This document shows, in pieces, positions 1 through 58,505 of a stretch of DNA of 64,000 nt. The stretch is from Escherichia coli. GTDB lineage: Bacteria; Pseudomonadota; Gammaproteobacteria; Enterobacterales; Enterobacteriaceae. Where the stretch lies: the NCBI RefSeq assembly GCF_003334305.1, contig NZ_QOWS01000006.1, one strand, 5' to 3'. The position numbers were made by a program, and so were the translations under genes. How positions within the stretch are numbered: the first letter of the stretch is position 1; every line of letters begins with the position of its first letter. The notes under the pieces were generated by a model. The model made no database searches. It was not told the origin of the DNA and worked only from the letters and a program-made list of their open reading frames with translations.

Positions 1-25
1 GTTCGATGCGTCACGGCATAATCCG

Positions 26-86
<61 letters not shown>

Positions 87-87
87 C

Positions 88-146
<59 letters not shown>

Positions 147-6708: not shown

Positions 6709-8625
6709 ATGGGTAAAATAATTGGTATCGACCTGGGTACTACCAACTCTTGTGTAGCGATTATGGATGGCACCACTCCTCGTGTGCTGGAGAACGCCGA
6801 AGGCGATCGCACCACGCCTTCTATCATTGCCTATACCCAGGATGGTGAAACTCTGGTTGGTCAGCCGGCTAAACGTCAGGCAGTGACGAACCCGCAAAAC
6901 ACCCTGTTTGCGATTAAACGCCTGATTGGCCGCCGCTTCCAGGACGAAGAAGTACAGCGTGATGTTTCCATCATGCCGTTCAAAATTATTGCTGCTGATA
7001 ACGGCGACGCATGGGTCGAAGTTAAAGGCCAGAAAATGGCACCGCCGCAGATCTCTGCTGAAGTGCTGAAAAAAATGAAGAAAACCGCTGAAGATTACTT
7101 GGGTGAACCGGTAACTGAAGCTGTTATCACCGTACCGGCATACTTTAACGATGCTCAGCGTCAGGCAACCAAAGACGCAGGCCGTATCGCTGGTCTGGAA
7201 GTAAAACGTATCATCAACGAACCGACCGCAGCTGCGCTGGCTTACGGTCTGGACAAAGGTACTGGCAACCGTACTATCGCGGTTTATGACCTGGGTGGTG
7301 GTACTTTCGATATTTCTATTATCGAAATCGACGAAGTTGACGGCGAAAAAACCTTCGAAGTTCTGGCTACCAACGGTGATACCCACCTGGGTGGTGAAGA
7401 CTTCGACAGCCGTCTGATCAACTACCTGGTTGAAGAATTCAAGAAAGATCAGGGCATTGACCTGCGCAACGATCCGCTGGCAATGCAGCGCCTGAAAGAA
7501 GCGGCAGAAAAAGCGAAAATCGAACTGTCTTCCGCTCAGCAGACCGACGTTAACCTGCCGTACATCACTGCAGATGCGACCGGTCCGAAACACATGAACA
7601 TCAAAGTGACTCGTGCGAAACTGGAAAGCCTGGTTGAAGATCTGGTAAACCGTTCCATTGAGCCGCTGAAAGTTGCACTGCAGGACGCTGGCCTGTCCGT
7701 ATCTGATATCGACGACGTTATCCTCGTTGGTGGTCAGACTCGTATGCCAATGGTTCAGAAGAAAGTTGCTGAGTTCTTTGGTAAAGAGCCGCGTAAAGAC
7801 GTTAACCCGGACGAAGCTGTAGCAATCGGTGCTGCTGTTCAGGGTGGTGTTCTGACTGGTGACGTGAAAGACGTACTGCTGCTGGACGTTACCCCGCTGT
7901 CTCTGGGTATCGAAACCATGGGCGGTGTGATGACGACGCTGATCGCGAAAAACACCACTATCCCGACCAAGCACAGCCAGGTGTTCTCTACCGCTGAAGA
8001 CAACCAGTCTGCGGTAACCATCCATGTGCTGCAGGGTGAACGTAAACGTGCGGCTGATAACAAATCTCTGGGTCAGTTCAACCTGGATGGTATCAACCCG
8101 GCACCGCGCGGCATGCCGCAGATCGAAGTTACCTTCGATATCGATGCTGACGGTATCCTGCACGTTTCCGCGAAAGATAAAAACAGCGGTAAAGAGCAGA
8201 AGATCACCATCAAGGCTTCTTCTGGTCTGAACGAAGATGAAATCCAGAAAATGGTACGCGACGCAGAAGCTAACGCCGAAGCTGACCGTAAGTTTGAAGA
8301 GCTGGTACAGACTCGCAACCAGGGCGACCATCTGCTGCACAGCACCCGTAAGCAGGTTGAAGAAGCAGGCGACAAACTGCCGGCTGACGACAAAACTGCT
8401 ATCGAGTCTGCACTGACTGCACTGGAAACTGCTCTGAAAGGTGAAGACAAAGCCGCTATCGAAGCGAAAATGCAGGAGCTGGCACAGGTTTCCCAGAAAC
8501 TGATGGAAATCGCCCAGCAGCAACATGCCCAGCAGCAGACTGCCGGTGCTGATGCTTCTGCAAACAACGCGAAAGATGACGATGTTGTCGACGCTGAATT
8601 TGAAGAAGTCAAAGACAAAAAATAA
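6709..8625 (+). CDS. dnaK: Molecular chaperone DnaK (Hsp70)
   Basis: 638-aa ORF with [17 protein letters not shown] and other Hsp70 signatures. Confidence 0.98.
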
Positions 8626-8713
8626 TCGCCCTATAAACGGGTAATTATACTGACACGGGCGAAGGGGAATTTCCTCTCCGCCCGTGCATTCATCTAGGGG
8701 CAATTTAAAAAAG

Positions 8714-9844
8714 ATGGCTAAGCAAGATTATTACGAGATTTTAGGCGTTTCCAAAACAGCGGAAGAGCGTGAAATCAAAAAGGCCTACAAACGCCTGGCC
8801 ATGAAATACCACCCGGACCGTAACCAGGGTGACAAAGAGGCCGAGGCGAAATTTAAAGAGATCAAGGAAGCTTATGAAGTTCTGACCGACTCGCAAAAAC
8901 GTGCGGCATACGATCAGTATGGTCATGCTGCGTTTGAGCAAGGCGGCATGGGCGGCGGCGGTTTTGGCGGCGGCGCAGACTTCAGCGATATTTTTGGTGA
9001 CGTTTTCGGCGATATTTTTGGCGGCGGACGTGGTCGTCAACGTGCGGCGCGCGGTGCTGATTTACGCTATAACATGGAGCTCACCCTCGAAGAAGCTGTA
9101 CGTGGCGTGACCAAAGAGATCCGCATTCCGACTCTGGAAGAGTGTGACGTTTGCCACGGTAGCGGTGCAAAACCAGGTACACAGCCGCAGACCTGTCCGA
9201 CCTGTCATGGTTCTGGTCAGGTGCAGATGCGTCAGGGATTCTTCGCTGTACAGCAGACCTGTCCACACTGTCAGGGCCGCGGTACGCTGATCAAAGATCC
9301 GTGCAACAAATGTCATGGTCATGGTCGTGTTGAGCGCAGCAAAACGCTGTCCGTTAAAATCCCGGCAGGGGTGGACACTGGAGACCGCATCCGTCTTGCG
9401 GGCGAAGGTGAAGCGGGCGAGCATGGCGCACCGGCAGGCGATCTGTACGTTCAGGTTCAGGTTAAACAGCACCCGATTTTCGAGCGTGAAGGCAACAACC
9501 TCTATTGCGAAGTCCCGATCAACTTCGCTATGGCGGCGCTGGGTGGCGAAATCGAAGTACCGACCCTTGATGGTCGCGTCAAACTGAAAGTGCCTGGCGA
9601 AACCCAGACCGGTAAGCTTTTCCGTATGCGCGGTAAAGGCGTCAAGTCTGTCCGCGGTGGCGCACAGGGTGATTTGCTGTGCCGCGTTGTCGTCGAAACA
9701 CCGGTAGGCCTGAACGAGAAGCAGAAACAGCTGCTGCAAGAGCTGCAAGAAAGCTTCGGTGGCCCAACCGGTGAGCACAACAGCCCGCGCTCAAAGAGCT
9801 TCTTTGATGGTGTGAAGAAGTTTTTTGACGACCTGACCCGCTAA
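8714..9844 (+). CDS. dnaJ: Co-chaperone DnaJ (Hsp40)
   Basis: ORF 8684..9844; ATG at 8714 gives the 376-aa protein [13 protein letters not shown]-domain HPD motif, Gly/Phe-rich region and four CxxCxGxG zinc-finger repeats. Confidence 0.97.
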
Positions 9845-9852
9845 CCTCCCCA

Positions 9853-9880
9853 AAAGCCTGCCCGTGGGCAGGCTTGGGTA
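9853..9880. terminator. Hairpin between dnaJ and hokC (probable terminator)
   Basis: Inverted repeat gcctgccc gtg ggcaggc immediately after the dnaJ stop, between convergent genes. Confidence 0.5.
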
Positions 9881-9947
9881 AAATTAGGGTGCGTTGAAGA
9901 TATGCGAGCACCTGAAAAGTGGCGGGGATCACTCCCCGCCGTTGCAC

Positions 9948-10100
9948 TTACTCGGATTCGTAAGCCGTGAAAACAGCAACCTCCGTCTGGCCAGTTCGGA
10001 TGTGAACCTCACAGAGGTCTTTTCTCGTTACCAGCGCCGCCACTACGGCGGTGATACAGATGACGATCAGGGCGACAATCATCGCCTTATGCTGCTTCAT
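9948..10100 (-). CDS. hokC: Hok-family type I toxin HokC (Gef)
   Basis: 50-aa C-terminal portion of the 9948..10190 ORF: MKQHKAMIVALIVICITAVVAALVTRKDLCEVHIRTGQTEVAVFTAYESE, a small single-helix membrane peptide. Confidence 0.9.
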   Translation of the reverse strand: MKQHKAMIVALIVICITAVVAALVTRKDLCEVHIRTGQTEVAVFTAYESE

Positions 10101-10157
10101 TGCTCTCTTCTCCTTGACCTTACGGTCAGTAAGAGGCACTCTACATGTGTTCAGCAT
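9948..10157 (-). CDS. mokC: MokC, overlapping regulatory reading frame of hokC
   Basis: 69-aa frame MLNTCRV... that reads through hokC, as in hok/mok/sok loci. Confidence 0.7.
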   Translation of the reverse strand: MLNTCRVPLTDRKVKEKRAMKQHKAMIVALIVICITAVVAALVTRKDLCEVHIRTGQTEVAVFTAYESE

Positions 10158-10205
10158 ATAGGGGGCCTCGGGTTGATAGTAAAATATCACTCGGGGCTTT
10201 TCTCT
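10149..10205 (+). ncRNA. sokC: sokC antisense RNA (approximate position)
   Basis: Placed by analogy with hok/sok architecture, antisense to the mokC start region; boundaries are inferred, not read from the sequence. Confidence 0.35.
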
Positions 10206-10685
10206 ATCTGCCGTTCAGCTAATGCCTGAGACAGATAGCCTCAAGCACCCGCCGCTATTATATCGCTCTCTTTAACCCATTCTGTTTTATCGATTCTAAT
10301 CCTGAAGACGCCTCGCATTTTTGTGGCGTAATTTTTTAATGATTTAATTATTTAACTTTAATTTATCTCTTTATCGCAATTATTGACGACAAGCTGGATT
10401 ATTTTTGAAATATTGTCCTAACAAATAACGCCGACTGACAAGAAATTAATTATTACTTTTCCTAATTAATCCCTCAGAAATCCTGACCTTAAGCTATGAT
10501 TATCAGGGCTTAGGGTCACCCGTTAGCGCTTACAGCCGTCAAAAACTCATCTCACCGCTGATGGCGCAAATCCTTTAATTGCTCGTAAAAAACGAGTTAT
10601 TCCTACACTATAATCTGATTTTAACGATGATTTGTGCGGGGTAAAATAGTAAAAACGATCTATTCACCTGAAAGAGAAATAAAAA

Positions 10686-25661: not shown

Positions 25662-26065
25662 CCACAAAATATTTGTTATGGTGCAAAAATAACACATTTA
25701 ATTTATTGATTGTAAAGGGCTTTAATTTTTGGCCCTTTTATTTTTAGTGTTATGTTTTTAAATTGTCTATAAGTGCCAAAAATTACATGTTTTGTCTTCG
25801 GTTTTTGTTGTTTTAATGTAAATTTTGACCATTTGGTCCACTTTTCCCTACTCGCTTTTATTTCATGCAATCTTCTTGCTGCGCAAGCGTTTTCCAGAAC
25901 AGGTTATATGATCTTTTTGCCGCTTAATGCCTGTAAAACATGCATGAGCCACAAAATAATATAAAAAATCCCGCCATTAAGTTGACTTTTAGCGCCCATA
26001 TCTCCAGAATGCCGCCGTTTGCCAGAAATTCGTCGGTAAGCAGATTTGCATTGATTTACGTCATC

Positions 26066-26108
26066 ATTGTGAATTAATATGCAAATAAAGTGAGTGAATA
26101 TTCTCTGG
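26066..26108 (+). promoter_or_regulatory. carAB promoter P2 with tandem ArgR operators (ARG boxes)
   Basis: tgtgaattaatatgcaaa and agtgagtgaatattctct, each close to the ARG-box consensus tnTGAATwwwwATTCAnw, immediately upstream of carA. Confidence 0.55.
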
Positions 26109-53831: not shown

Positions 53832-54647
53832 ATGCAGTATTGGGGAAAAATCATTGGCGTGGCCGTGGCCTTACTGATGGGCGGCGGCTTTTGGGGCGTA
53901 GTGTTAGGCCTGTTAATTGGCCATATGTTTGATAAAGCCCGTAGCCGTAAAATGGCGTGGTTCGCCAACCAGCGTGAGCGTCAGGCGCTGTTTTTTGCCA
54001 CCACTTTTGAAGTGATGGGGCATTTAACCAAATCCAAAGGTCGCGTCACGGAGGCTGATATTCATATCGCCAGCCAGTTGATGGACCGAATGAATCTTCA
54101 TGGCGCTTCCCGTACTGCGGCGCAAAATGCGTTCCGGGTGGGAAAATCAGACAATTACCCGCTGCGCGAAAAGATGCGCCAGTTTCGCAGTGTCTGCTTT
54201 GGTCGTTTTGACTTAATTCGTATGTTTCTGGAGATCCAGATTCAGGCGGCGTTTGCTGATGGTTCACTGCACCCGAATGAACGGGCGGTGCTGTATGTCA
54301 TTGCTGAAGAATTAGGGATCTCCCGCGCCCAGTTTGACCAGTTTTTGCGCATGATGCAGGGCGGTGCACAGTTTGGCGGCGGTTATCAGCAGCAAACTGG
54401 CGGTGGTAACTGGCAGCAAGCGCAGCGTGGCCCAACGCTGGAAGATGCCTGTAATGTGCTGGGCGTGAAGCCGACGGATGATGCGACCACCATCAAACGT
54501 GCCTACCGTAAGCTGATGAGTGAACACCATCCCGATAAGCTGGTGGCGAAAGGTTTGCCGCCTGAGATGATGGAGATGGCGAAGCAGAAAGCGCAGGAAA
54601 TTCAGCAGGCATATGAGCTGATAAAGCAGCAGAAAGGGTTTAAATAA
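53832..54647 (+). CDS. djlA: Co-chaperone DjlA (membrane-anchored J-domain protein)
   Basis: ORF 53787..54647; ATG at 53832 gives the 271-aa protein [20 protein letters not shown]-terminal J-domain HPD motif. Confidence 0.94.
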
Positions 54648-54656
54648 GTTTTAAAC

Positions 54657-54745
54657 TGTAGGCCTGATAAGACGCGGCCCGCGTCGCATCAGGCAATCGG
54701 CGCACAATTGCCGGATGCGGCGTGAACGCCTTATCCGCCTACCGA
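54657..54745. repeat. BIME made of two REP elements
   Basis: gtaggcctgataagacgcggcccgcgtcgcatcaggc and gccggatgcggcgtgaacgccttatccgcctac fill the djlA-rluA intergenic gap. Confidence 0.6.
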
Positions 54746-54763
54746 ACTGCGCCAGCGTGACGA

Positions 54764-55434: not shown

Positions 55435-58341
55435 TTACTGATGCGTTACAACGATCAAACGCAGGGCATCCAGACGCCAACCTGCCTGATCCAGGCTTTC
55501 CATTACCTGCTGACGGTTGCTCTCAATGGCGGTCAGTTCGTCGTCACGAATGTTCGGGTTCACTGCACGCAGAGCTTCCAGACGAGACAGCTCGGCAGAC
55601 AGTTTTTCGTCGGCTTCGTTACGCGCTGCATCAATCAATGCACGGGCAGATTTCTCGATCTGCGCTTCACCCAGTTGAAGGATAGCGTGAACATCCTGCT
55701 GCACGGCGTTAACCAGTTTGCTGCCGGTGTGACGGTTAACCGCGTTAAGCTGGCGGTTAAAGGTTTCAAACTCTACCTGCGCCGCCAGGTTGTTGCCGTT
55801 TTTATCCAGCAGCATACGTACCGGCGTCGGTGGCAGGAAGCGGTTGAGCTGCAACTGCTTCGGAGCCTGGGCTTCAACCACATAAATCAGTTCCACCAAC
55901 AGCGTACCTACCGGCAACGCTTTGTTTTTTAACAGTGAAATCGTGCTGCTACCGGTATCGCCAGAAAGAATCAGATCCAGACCGTTGCGGATCAGCGGAT
56001 GCTCCCAGGTAATAAACTGTGCATCTTCACGCGCCAGCGCCACTTCACGATCAAAGGTGATGGTGATGCCATCTTCCGACAGGCCAGGGAAGTCCGGCAC
56101 CAGCATATGATCGGACGGCGTCAGCACGATCATGTTGTCGCCGCGATCGTCCTGATTGATACCGATAATATCGAACAGGTTCATGGCGAAGGCGATCAGG
56201 TTGGTATCGTCATCCTGCTCTTCAATGCTTTCTGCCAGTGCCTGGGCTTTTTCGCCACCGTTGGAGTGGATTTCCAGCAGGCGGTCACGACCCTGTTCCA
56301 GCTGTGCTTTCAGCGCTTCATGTTGCTCGCGGCAGTTTTTGATCAGATCGTCAAAGCCTTCGGTTTGATCCGGTGAAGCCAGATAGTTAATCAGATCGTT
56401 GTATACGCTATCGTAAATAGTGCGTCCGGTCGGGCAGGTGTGCTCAAATGCATCCAGACCTTCGTGATACCAGCGCACCAGCACCGACTGAGCGGTTTTC
56501 TCCAGATAAGGCACATGGATCTGAATATCGTGCGCCTGGCCGATACGATCCAGACGACCAATACGCTGCTCCAGTAGATCCGGGTTGAATGGCAGGTCAA
56601 ACATCACCATGTGGCTGGCGAACTGGAAGTTACGTCCTTCAGAACCGATTTCTGAGCACAGCAGTACCTGTGCGCCGGTGTCTTCTTCGGCAAACCAGGC
56701 GGCAGCGCGGTCACGTTCGATAATCGACATACCTTCGTGGAACACCGCAGCGCGAATACCTTCACGTTCGCGCAGTACCTGCTCCAGTTGCAGCGCAGTG
56801 GCAGCTTTGGCGCAGATCACCAGCACTTTCTGAGAGCGATGGCTGGTCAGGTAGCCCATCAGCCACTCAACGCGCGGATCGAAGTTCCACCAGGTGGCGT
56901 TATCACCTTCAAATTCCTGATAAATACGCTCCGGGTAGAGCATATCGCGAGCACGATCTTCCGCACTTTTACGTGCGCCCATAATGCCGGAGACTTTAAT
57001 AGCCGTCTGATACTGCGTCGGTAGCGGCAGTTTAATGGTGTGCAGCTCGCGTTTCGGGAATCCTTTCACACCGTTACGCGTGTTACGGAACAGCACGCGG
57101 CTGGTGCCGTGGCGATCCATCAGCATCGAAACCAGCTCCTGACGGGCGCTCTGGGCATCTTCGCTGTCGCTGTTTGCTGCCTGCAACAGCGGCTCGATAT
57201 CCTGCTCGCCGATCATCTCGCCGAGCATGTTCAGTTCGTCATTGCTCAGTTTGTTACCTGCCAGCAGCATGGCAACGGCGTCCGCAACCGGACGATAATT
57301 TTTCTGCTCTTCAACGAACTGCGCAAAATCGTGGAAACGGTTCGGGTCCAGCAGACGCAGACGGGCGAAGTGGCTTTCCATCCCCAGCTGTTCCGGGGTC
57401 GCGGTCAGCAGCAGAACGCCCGGCACGTGCTCTGCCAGTTGTTCAATGGCCTGATATTCACGGCTTGGCGCATCTTCGCTCCACACCAGGTGATGCGCTT
57501 CATCGACCACCAGCAGGTCCCATTCGGCTTCACAGAGATGTTCCAGGCGCTGTTTGCTACGACGGGCAAAATCCAGCGAGCAAATCACCAGCTGTTCGGT
57601 GTCAAACGGGTTGTAAGCATCGTGCTGAGCTTCGGCATAACGCTCATCATCAAATAGCGCAAAGCGCAGGTTGAAACGGCGCAGCATTTCTACCAGCCAC
57701 TGATGCTGTAAGGTTTCCGGGACGATAATTAGCACACGTTCAGCAGCGCCAGAGAGCAGTTGCTGATGCAGGATCATCCCGGCTTCAATGGTTTTCCCTA
57801 AACCCACTTCGTCAGCCAGCAGGACGCGCGGCGCGTGGCGGCGACCAACATCATGAGCGATGTTGAGCTGATGCGGAATCAGGCTGGTACGCTGACCGCG
57901 CAGGCCGCTGTACGGCATACGGAACTGTTCGCTGGAATACTTACGCGCGCGATAACGCAGCGCAAAGCGGTCCATACGGTCAATCTGCCCGGCAAACAGA
58001 CGGTCCTGCGGTTTGCTGAACACCAGTTTGCTATCAAGGAAAACTTCACGCAGGGCTACGCCGGACTCTTCAGTATCCAGGCGAGTACCGATATAGGTCA
58101 GCAAGCCATTTTCTTCTTTTACTTCTTCGACTTGCATCTGCCAGCCGTCATGGCTGGTAATAGTATCACCAGGGTTGAACATCACGCGGGTCACGGGGGA
58201 ATCACTGCGTGCGTACAGACGGTTTTCACCAGTAGATGGGAAAAGTAAAGTGACAGTTCGCGCATCCACCGCGACAACGGTTCCAAGTCCCAATTCGCTT
58301 TCTGTATCGCTGATCCAGCGTTGACCAAGTGTAAAAGGCAT
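55435..58341 (-). CDS. rapA: RNA polymerase-associated SWI2/SNF2 ATPase RapA (HepA)
   Basis: 968-aa ORF with helicase motifs DEVGLGKT and VVDEAHH. Confidence 0.97.
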
Positions 58342-58505
58342 ATGTGTTCGGCTCTATATCTTTAATTGCAGGCAATAACCACCCGCTACCGTGCTTATGA
58401 GGTAGTGGTGTTATTCAGGTCCAGGAATGGAAAGGGCGCTATGGTACTGGATGGCAAAGCATTCGTCACGCATCAAAATGGTATCTGGCGAACTCTTTTT
58501 TTTGC

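Follow-up and report, generated by a model that had tools for sequence, protein, structure and literature searches.

A probable ancestral-type, insertion-free hokC/mokC/sokC allele of Escherichia coli and its predicted RNA switch

The hok loci of Escherichia coli K-12 have been inactivated by insertion sequence (IS) elements, point mutation or rearrangement (PMC7232551, PMC2654758, PMC12214031). One of them, gef, corresponds in essence to hokC followed, beyond its coding region, by IS186, an insertion thought to disrupt the fold-back inhibitory element (fbi) and normal processing (PMC3562002). A hokC locus free of this insertion raises the question of whether its RNA architecture is complete and in which sense it may be called functional. 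Such a locus is situated in the 64,000-nucleotide stretch of E. coli DNA analyzed here (NCBI RefSeq assembly GCF_003334305.1, contig NZ_QOWS01000006.1), referred to as the window, to which all positions refer. An initial annotation, made from the letters of the window, had placed an uninterrupted hokC/mokC/sokC type I toxin-antitoxin locus at 9845-10205 and suggested that it may be in its functional configuration.

The list of open reading frames gives the plus-strand order dnaK (6709-8625), dnaJ, nhaA (10686-11852) and nhaR. dnaJ ends at 9844, its TAA stop codon (9842-9844) agreeing with that of K-12 dnaJ. The hokC/mokC/sokC locus lies between dnaJ and nhaA, with hokC on the minus strand, convergent with dnaJ and upstream of nhaA. 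The hokC reading frame runs from 10100 to 9948 and encodes a Hok/Gef membrane toxin of 50 amino acids, MKQHKAMIVALIVICITAVVAALVTRKDLCEVHIRTGQTEVAVFTAYESE, followed by a stop codon. The protein matches the Pfam family PF01848 (HOK_GEF) over the full model, 1-42, with E=5.5e-24, and the NCBIfam Hok family with E=2e-12, which is below the curated cutoff; the toxin frame is intact, as had been claimed, and identical to that of K-12. The mokC frame (9948-10157, minus; 69 amino acids) overlaps hokC in frame, and mokC of K-12 (b0018) occupies the equivalent position; by analogy with mok of plasmid R1 (PMC9841398), translation of mokC is probably required for that of hok. Rfam family RF01794, which is named 'sok', matches 10250-10098 on the minus strand over its full length, 1-157, with 122.4 bits against a gathering score of 59. 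This model represents the hok-sense strand (153 nt upstream of and into the hokC start) and not the SokC strand.

Together with the K-12 equivalents, the Pfam and Rfam matches bear out the identification of the locus. The spacing is also as described: 103 nt (9845-9947), free of any IS, separate the dnaJ stop from the hokC stop (9948-9950, minus), where about 100 bp had been estimated. The 1-kb region is 100% identical to that of E. coli O43 str. RM10042, in which RefSeq labels mokC. We note a naming inconsistency here, as RefSeq/PGAP calls the 50-residue hokC frame 'type I toxin-antitoxin system toxin MokC'; non-K-12 RefSeq records carry sokC and the 69-residue mok frame without annotation. 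We consider it very probable that 9849-10262 is an insertion-free, ancestral-type allele of the chromosomal E. coli hokC/mokC/sokC locus.

Comparison with K-12 (NC_000913.3) locates the difference precisely. In that genome, the annotation has dnaJ up to 15298, IS186A at 15387-16731, hokC at 16751-16903, mokC at 16751-16960 and sokC at 16952-17010, so that IS186A separates dnaJ from hokC; the IS186 copy named in the initial annotation is thus present in K-12. The core of IS186A comprises 1339 bp, begins with CATAAGCGC..., ends with ...GCGCTTATG and lies between the two copies of a duplicated 10-bp target, GGATCACTCC. The window has a single GGATCACTCC (9926-9935), which forms the center of a perfect hairpin, GGCGGGGATCACTCCCCGCC (9921-9940), and the interrupted 'gef' configuration of K-12 is absent. 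Because the target is single-copy and lies within a continuous hairpin, the window is, as judged from its sequence, the exact empty site for the K-12 IS186. The K-12 element is positioned 12-22 nt downstream of the hokC stop, so that the earlier placement of IS186 in the gap is right as to the flanking genes and becomes more exact as a position inside the 3'-UTR hairpin.

Alignment of the dnaJ-hokC-nhaA region, after removal of the IS and one copy of the duplication from K-12, reveals 7 SNPs across 9845-10262, situated at 9874, 9884, 9915, 9946, 10163, 10178 and 10236. There are no differences within 9947-10162, a segment that includes hokC, mokC, the hok Shine-Dalgarno (SD) sequence, the mok start and the putative sokC promoter. 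Since this segment is identical, no point mutations relative to K-12 were found in the translation signals or the sok promoter. In the alignment, the 3'-UTR SNPs at 9915 and 9946 and the sokC SNP at 10178 appear private to the window allele.

An empty site could in principle be secondary, left by precise excision of an earlier IS186, which would likewise restore a perfect single-copy 10-bp target. The distribution of the insertion among E. coli genomes bears on this alternative. A 331-nt query (9775-10105) spanning the insertion point was compared with 5426 complete E. coli genomes, all of which matched, and a site was counted as uninterrupted when one place covered at least 80% of the query. 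The site is uninterrupted in 3815 genomes (~70%), and in the interrupted ones (1611) the matches break at window position 9925. Queries for the dnaJ-side junction, for which there is no paralog, found IS186 in the K-12 orientation in 686 of the 5426 genomes (13%) and in the opposite orientation in 924 (17%), together 1610, or all but one of the interrupted genomes. These counts replace a census of the hokC-side junction (841 + 953 genomes), which exceeds the 1611 interrupted genomes; the excess likely comes from hokE-type junctions that reach the 80% threshold. Most genomes have the empty site; the K-12 state is in the minority.

The opposite orientation is exemplified by the O111:H8 strain SF26 102-1, in which an IS186 identical in sequence to IS186A is flanked by the same 10-bp duplication; the junctions of K-12 and O111:H8 both map to the 9921-9940 hairpin. 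Because both orientations share the same duplication, at least two independent IS186 insertions have occurred at the same bases, and each requires an empty site to insert into. This argues against excision, as do the majority status of the empty site, which is found across an allele identity range of 96.7-100%, and the general rarity of precise IS excision. We regard a secondary origin of the empty site as extremely improbable.

The equivalent hairpin of a hok paralog on an IncY plasmid and the hokE loci also carry IS186. IS186 prefers G-run/C-run targets, and this preference would most simply explain its recurrence in the hairpins of hokC, hokE and the IncY paralog. Other disruptions of the locus were encountered in the same collection. 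In E. coli Z1324SEC0014, hokC is gone, and the interval from dnaJ to nhaA is occupied by IS1A and a truncated transposase gene. The IS-free allele of E. coli ESBLEC_HM52 has CAG changed to TAG at hokC codon 3 (window 10094-10092), for which RefSeq gives a shortened 'Hok/Gef family protein'; alleles inactivated by point mutation are therefore in circulation too.

The putative ends of the hokC mRNA encoded by the uninterrupted allele, and those of SokC, derive from Rfam, the K-12 annotation and promoter spacing. The 5' end of the mRNA was taken as 10250, which is position 1 of the Rfam model and has TATAAT 6 nt upstream, and its 3' end as the U-run that follows the 9849-9878 hairpin, resulting in a 400-nt RNA (10250 to 9851, minus). 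The putative -10 box, TATAAT (10257-10262, minus), has no good -35 box; in the alignment it is kept in five E. coli alleles and reads TACAAT in two plasmid homologs. The earlier span of 9845-10205 therefore contains the gap and the reading frames, but the locus extends further, to about 10250 (the putative 5' end of the mRNA) and to the TATAAT at 10257-10262. A G+C-rich hairpin at 9849-9878 is predicted on both strands (-22.5 kcal/mol, z about -4, for minus; -21.0 kcal/mol, z about -3.3, for plus), with UUUU after it (about 9852-9855) on the minus strand; it probably serves as a terminator common to dnaJ on the plus strand and the full-length hokC mRNA on the minus strand. In a consensus promoter and terminator scan, the hokC promoter, the sokC promoter and the shared terminator all fell below threshold, the terminator because of its short T run and the sokC promoter because of its weak -10 box; the assignment of all three is based on homology and spacing.

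The window has an equivalent for each RNA element in the R1 hok/sok model. The translational activator element (tac), GGGUGCUUGAGG, forms the putative 5' end of the mRNA (10239-10250, minus), as placed by Rfam position 1 and by the folds. The upstream complementary box (ucb, or anti-SD), AAGCCCC, is located by folding at 10193-10199 (minus; mRNA nt 52-58), and the downstream complementary box (dcb), GCCUC, at 10133-10137 (minus; nt 114-118) pairs with the mok SD region in the 3'-trimmed fold. The mokC SD, GAGG (10166-10169, minus; nt 82-85), lies 9 nt 5' of the mokC start and is paired with ucb in the full-length fold, and the hokC SD, AAGGAG (10110-10115, minus; nt 136-141), is the same as in K-12. 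In the predicted fold, the 5' end of the mRNA is paired to fbi, CUUCAACGCACCC (9887-9899, minus; nt 352-364). Between the hokC stop and fbi, the 3'-UTR stem-loop GGCGGGGAGUGAUCCCCGCC (9921-9940, minus; nt 311-330), which is the target of IS186 in K-12, has a predicted energy of -18.7 kcal/mol. The last stem-loop of the truncated R1 hok mRNA protects against exonucleases (PMC9841398), and by analogy the 9921-9940 stem-loop is the candidate for the protective 3' hairpin of a processed hokC mRNA.

The antisense RNA sokC was placed at 10149-10207 on the plus strand by transfer from K-12 b4413 with an offset of 6803. SokC is complementary to nt 44-102 of the hokC mRNA and thereby spans the mok SD and start codon. 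It is predicted to fold into a short 5' tail and a long hairpin followed by UUUUCUCU, with -24.5 kcal/mol and z=-5.5, and differs from K-12 sokC by two of the SNPs, 10163 and 10178. A putative sokC promoter, read from the sequence at 10114-10142 (plus), consists of a -35 element TTGACC (10114-10119), a 17-nt spacer and a -10 element CACTCT (10137-10142); it is identical to that of K-12, and its spacing agrees with the annotated 5' end of K-12 sokC.

Folding of the 400-nt mRNA yields a minimum-energy structure of -163.3 kcal/mol, with z=-5.8 relative to dinucleotide shuffles. In this structure, nt 1-12 form a duplex with nt 352-364 (9899-9887) that has a single bulged C and pair probabilities of 0.94-1.0, and ucb (nt 54-59) is paired with the mok SD region (nt 81-86). 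When the RNA is cut in silico to 340 or 335 nt, the 5' end (nt 1-8) moves onto nt 52-58 with probability 0.93-1.0, and the mok SD region enters a new hairpin with nt 114-118. A 644-nt K-12 transcript that reads into IS186 is predicted to adopt the open tac-ucb form from the start. The predicted folds thus reproduce the scheme of R1 hok/sok, in which the full-length form is closed and the truncated form open (PMC9841398). The 5'/3' fold-back that had been proposed as a check is predicted, and the 3' region of the mRNA, described in the initial annotation as undisrupted, retains a continuous 9921-9940 hairpin.

The complementarity between tac and fbi is not unusual in itself. A duplex of at least equal stability arose in 17% of dinucleotide-shuffled 3' UTRs (332 of 2000), and 3.4% of the 97-nt tiles of the window (90 of 2664) paired equally well or better with the G-rich 5' end. 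The duplex-energy shuffle test, not being significant, was discarded as evidence for the fold-back, and the case therefore relies on folding of the whole molecule, invariance of fbi and covariation at a conserved position in 3-4 homologs. The fbi sequence CTTCAACGCACCC is invariant in 5 E. coli alleles, and neighboring UTR positions vary. In every homolog compared, the best duplex between the 5' end and the 3' UTR begins 47-53 nt after the stop codon, namely 48 nt in the window, 47 in the IncY plasmid, and 53 in NR1/R100, Vibrio pVPE61a and Salmonella IncHI2, the last being a weak case. Two-sided changes, read by eye, include GUGC/GCAC in hokC versus GCGC/GCGC in NR1 and UUGAGG/CUUCAA in hokC versus CUUGG/CCAA..G in Vibrio. 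The 5' ends of the homologs were set by Rfam model coordinates, as a regular-expression search for the 5' motif reached close relatives only; homologs from K. oxytoca, E. asburiae and Phytobacter, with weak or no leader matches, were left out.

The non-significant shuffle test would suit an alternative in which the 5'/3' complementarity is fortuitous and 9849-9947 is nothing more than the dnaJ terminator region. Against this stand the near-certain pairing (probability about 1) in the ensemble of the whole molecule and the kept position and two-sided changes in plasmid homologs that do not adjoin dnaJ. Moreover, alignment with the IncY homolog holds as far as fbi, at 75% identity, and not beyond. 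Fortuitous pairing is accordingly very unlikely, and the fold-back remains the preferred interpretation.

The folding predictions, combined with the analogy to R1, suggest the following course of events. A weakly promoted hokC mRNA of about 400 nt would be made in the closed form, with tac (10239-10250) on fbi (9887-9899) and the mok ribosome site sequestered by ucb. Slow 3' trimming to the stable hairpin at 9921-9940 would take off fbi, upon which the 5' end of the trimmed mRNA may pair with ucb and leave the mok SD exposed or paired with dcb. Two fates of this open form are envisaged: binding of the short-lived antisense SokC (10149-10207) would lead to its destruction, or translation of mok and then hok would yield a membrane-damaging peptide. 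In K-12, the 3' hairpin is split by IS186, and fbi is lost from the predicted transcript. For the IS-free hokC of strain ECOR24, PMC3562002 gives a transcript of ~330 nt; counted from 10250, the 9921-9940 hairpin ends at nt 330. This match is consistent with a processed RNA that terminates at the hairpin.

Whether the complete architecture amounts to a working toxin-antitoxin module is a separate question. According to a 2026 preprint that relays Pedersen and Gerdes 1999, the IS-free hokC of ECOR24 showed neither post-segregational killing nor activation by rifampicin (10.1101/2025.08.07.668861). Because the killing result for IS-free ECOR24 hokC, the sole published test of such an allele, is negative in that second-hand account, the suggested functional configuration is warranted for the RNA architecture, which is complete in prediction and has signals identical to K-12, and is not warranted for killing, against which there is published evidence. 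We give roughly even odds to a locus that is intact in sequence yet inert, one that is transcribed, is regulated at the RNA level and cannot kill or stabilize DNA at natural expression, and that represents a decaying or domesticated remnant and not a working addiction module. Loss-of-function alleles do circulate, as seen from IS186 in 1610 of the 5426 genomes, the nonsense codon 3 of HM52 and the IS1-associated deletion in Z1324SEC0014. HokC also needs Tyr-to-Cys recoding by RNA editing: at the Tyr47 site of K-12 hokC, A-to-I editing by TadA is merely 9% efficient (PMC12214031). The UACG motif at this codon, CUUACGAA (9957-9964, minus; A at 9961), is retained in the window. An inert locus is harder to reconcile with the conservation of all regulatory elements, including an fbi invariant in 5 E. 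coli alleles, with a site that is empty in 70% of genomes, and with the toxicity of the HokC coding sequence and peptide on overexpression (10.1101/2025.08.07.668861).

A fully active module, in which removal of SokC or stress would lead to killing or dormancy through HokC, is the less probable reading, to which we assign about one chance in four. It draws on the complete architecture with its predicted conformational switch, on a toxin identical to the known toxic Gef/HokC, and on the lethality of R1 hok as a chromosomal single copy without Sok (PMC9841398). The negative ECOR24 result, as relayed in the preprint (10.1101/2025.08.07.668861), and a hokC promoter with no recognizable -35 box speak against it. 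Rather doubtful is a further proposal, that the IS186 polymorphism is kept by selection beyond target preference, the IS-free allele being active with a cost or benefit, or, in a weaker version, that this allele is an active killer unlike that of ECOR24. If selection were at work, IS186 insertion would neutralize or rewire the toxin.

Several other features of the window were noted in passing. Window 1-142 is a short, diverged segment that has no megablast match in K-12 4000-84000; the match begins at window 143, which corresponds to K-12 5597. The Rfam families tpke11 (8636-8713, in the dnaK-dnaJ spacer; 69.6 bits) and ES003 sRNA (26017-26069; 87.4 bits) are known E. coli features. Between nhaR and rpsT, where K-12 has IS1A, the window contains a 4.06-kb segment (12994-17052) that K-12 lacks. 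This segment includes a 473-residue frame annotated in matching genomes as espX1 (a type III effector) together with fimbrial usher and fimbrial protein fragments, and is found in 3590 of the 5426 genomes. Where K-12 has its 1.5-kb yabP-yabQ region (58178-59686), the window has a 118-bp segment (54646-54763), within which 54661-54740 match the REP-type Rfam family naRNA4. The araD-araA spacer (61638-61776) has one 82-84-bp repeat unit versus three in K-12.

The initial annotation had implied that an uninterrupted hokC is noteworthy. This impression is not sustained, given the empty site in 3815 of the 5426 genomes and the published reports of IS-free hokC (PMC3562002, PMC7232551). IS-free hokC is already known and published in outline: it was described for ECOR24 (Pedersen and Gerdes 1999, in the form in which PMC3562002 cites it), and IS-free hok copies are present in strain NRG857c (PMC7232551). 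What is only mildly new is the census of IS186 in both orientations and the finding that the same hairpin is hit in hokE and the IncY paralog; the figures of 70% empty, 13% and 17% IS186 may usefully quantify what was described in 1999. At hokC, it is K-12 that is atypical. The window carries the complete hokC/mokC/sokC RNA architecture, and a strain with this allele would therefore be better suited than K-12 for studies of chromosomal hok regulation.

Comparison with known systems places the window allele among close and more distant relatives. The hokC (gef)/mokC/sokC (sof) locus of K-12 MG1655 (b4412, b0018, b4413) shares the position between dnaJ and nhaA and has identical HokC and MokC; it differs by IS186A and the 10-bp duplication in the 3'-UTR hairpin, which detach fbi and the terminator. 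The 'wild-type' hokC of ECOR24 is likewise an IS-free hokC/sokC, and its ~330-nt transcript agrees with 10250-9921. The likeness extends to the IS-free state and the transcript length, and the negative killing and rifampicin results, as summarized for ECOR24, are not surely transferable. The 'hokD' loci of IncY (P1-like) plasmids, for example p15648-1, are ~75% identical in nucleotides between the mRNA 5' end and fbi, inclusive, and 80-82% identical in protein, with the same hairpin and fbi. They differ in their plasmid or phage-plasmid context, an extra 18-nt leader insert, another terminator and, in some, an IS186 in the hairpin. The hok/mok/sok locus of R1 (and NR1/R100) has the same layout, belongs to the Hok/Gef family and shares the Rfam leader; the likeness extends to tac/fbi, ucb and the mok SD, dcb, the 3' hairpin and the predicted switch. 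This is in contrast to the protein, which is ~41% identical, and to its plasmid-borne as opposed to chromosomal setting. The tac/fbi pair reads GGGUGCUU/AA-C-GCACCC in hokC and GGCGCUU/AAGCGCC in R1/NR1. R1 mediates post-segregational killing, whereas IS-free hokC, in the accounts cited for ECOR24, reportedly does not.
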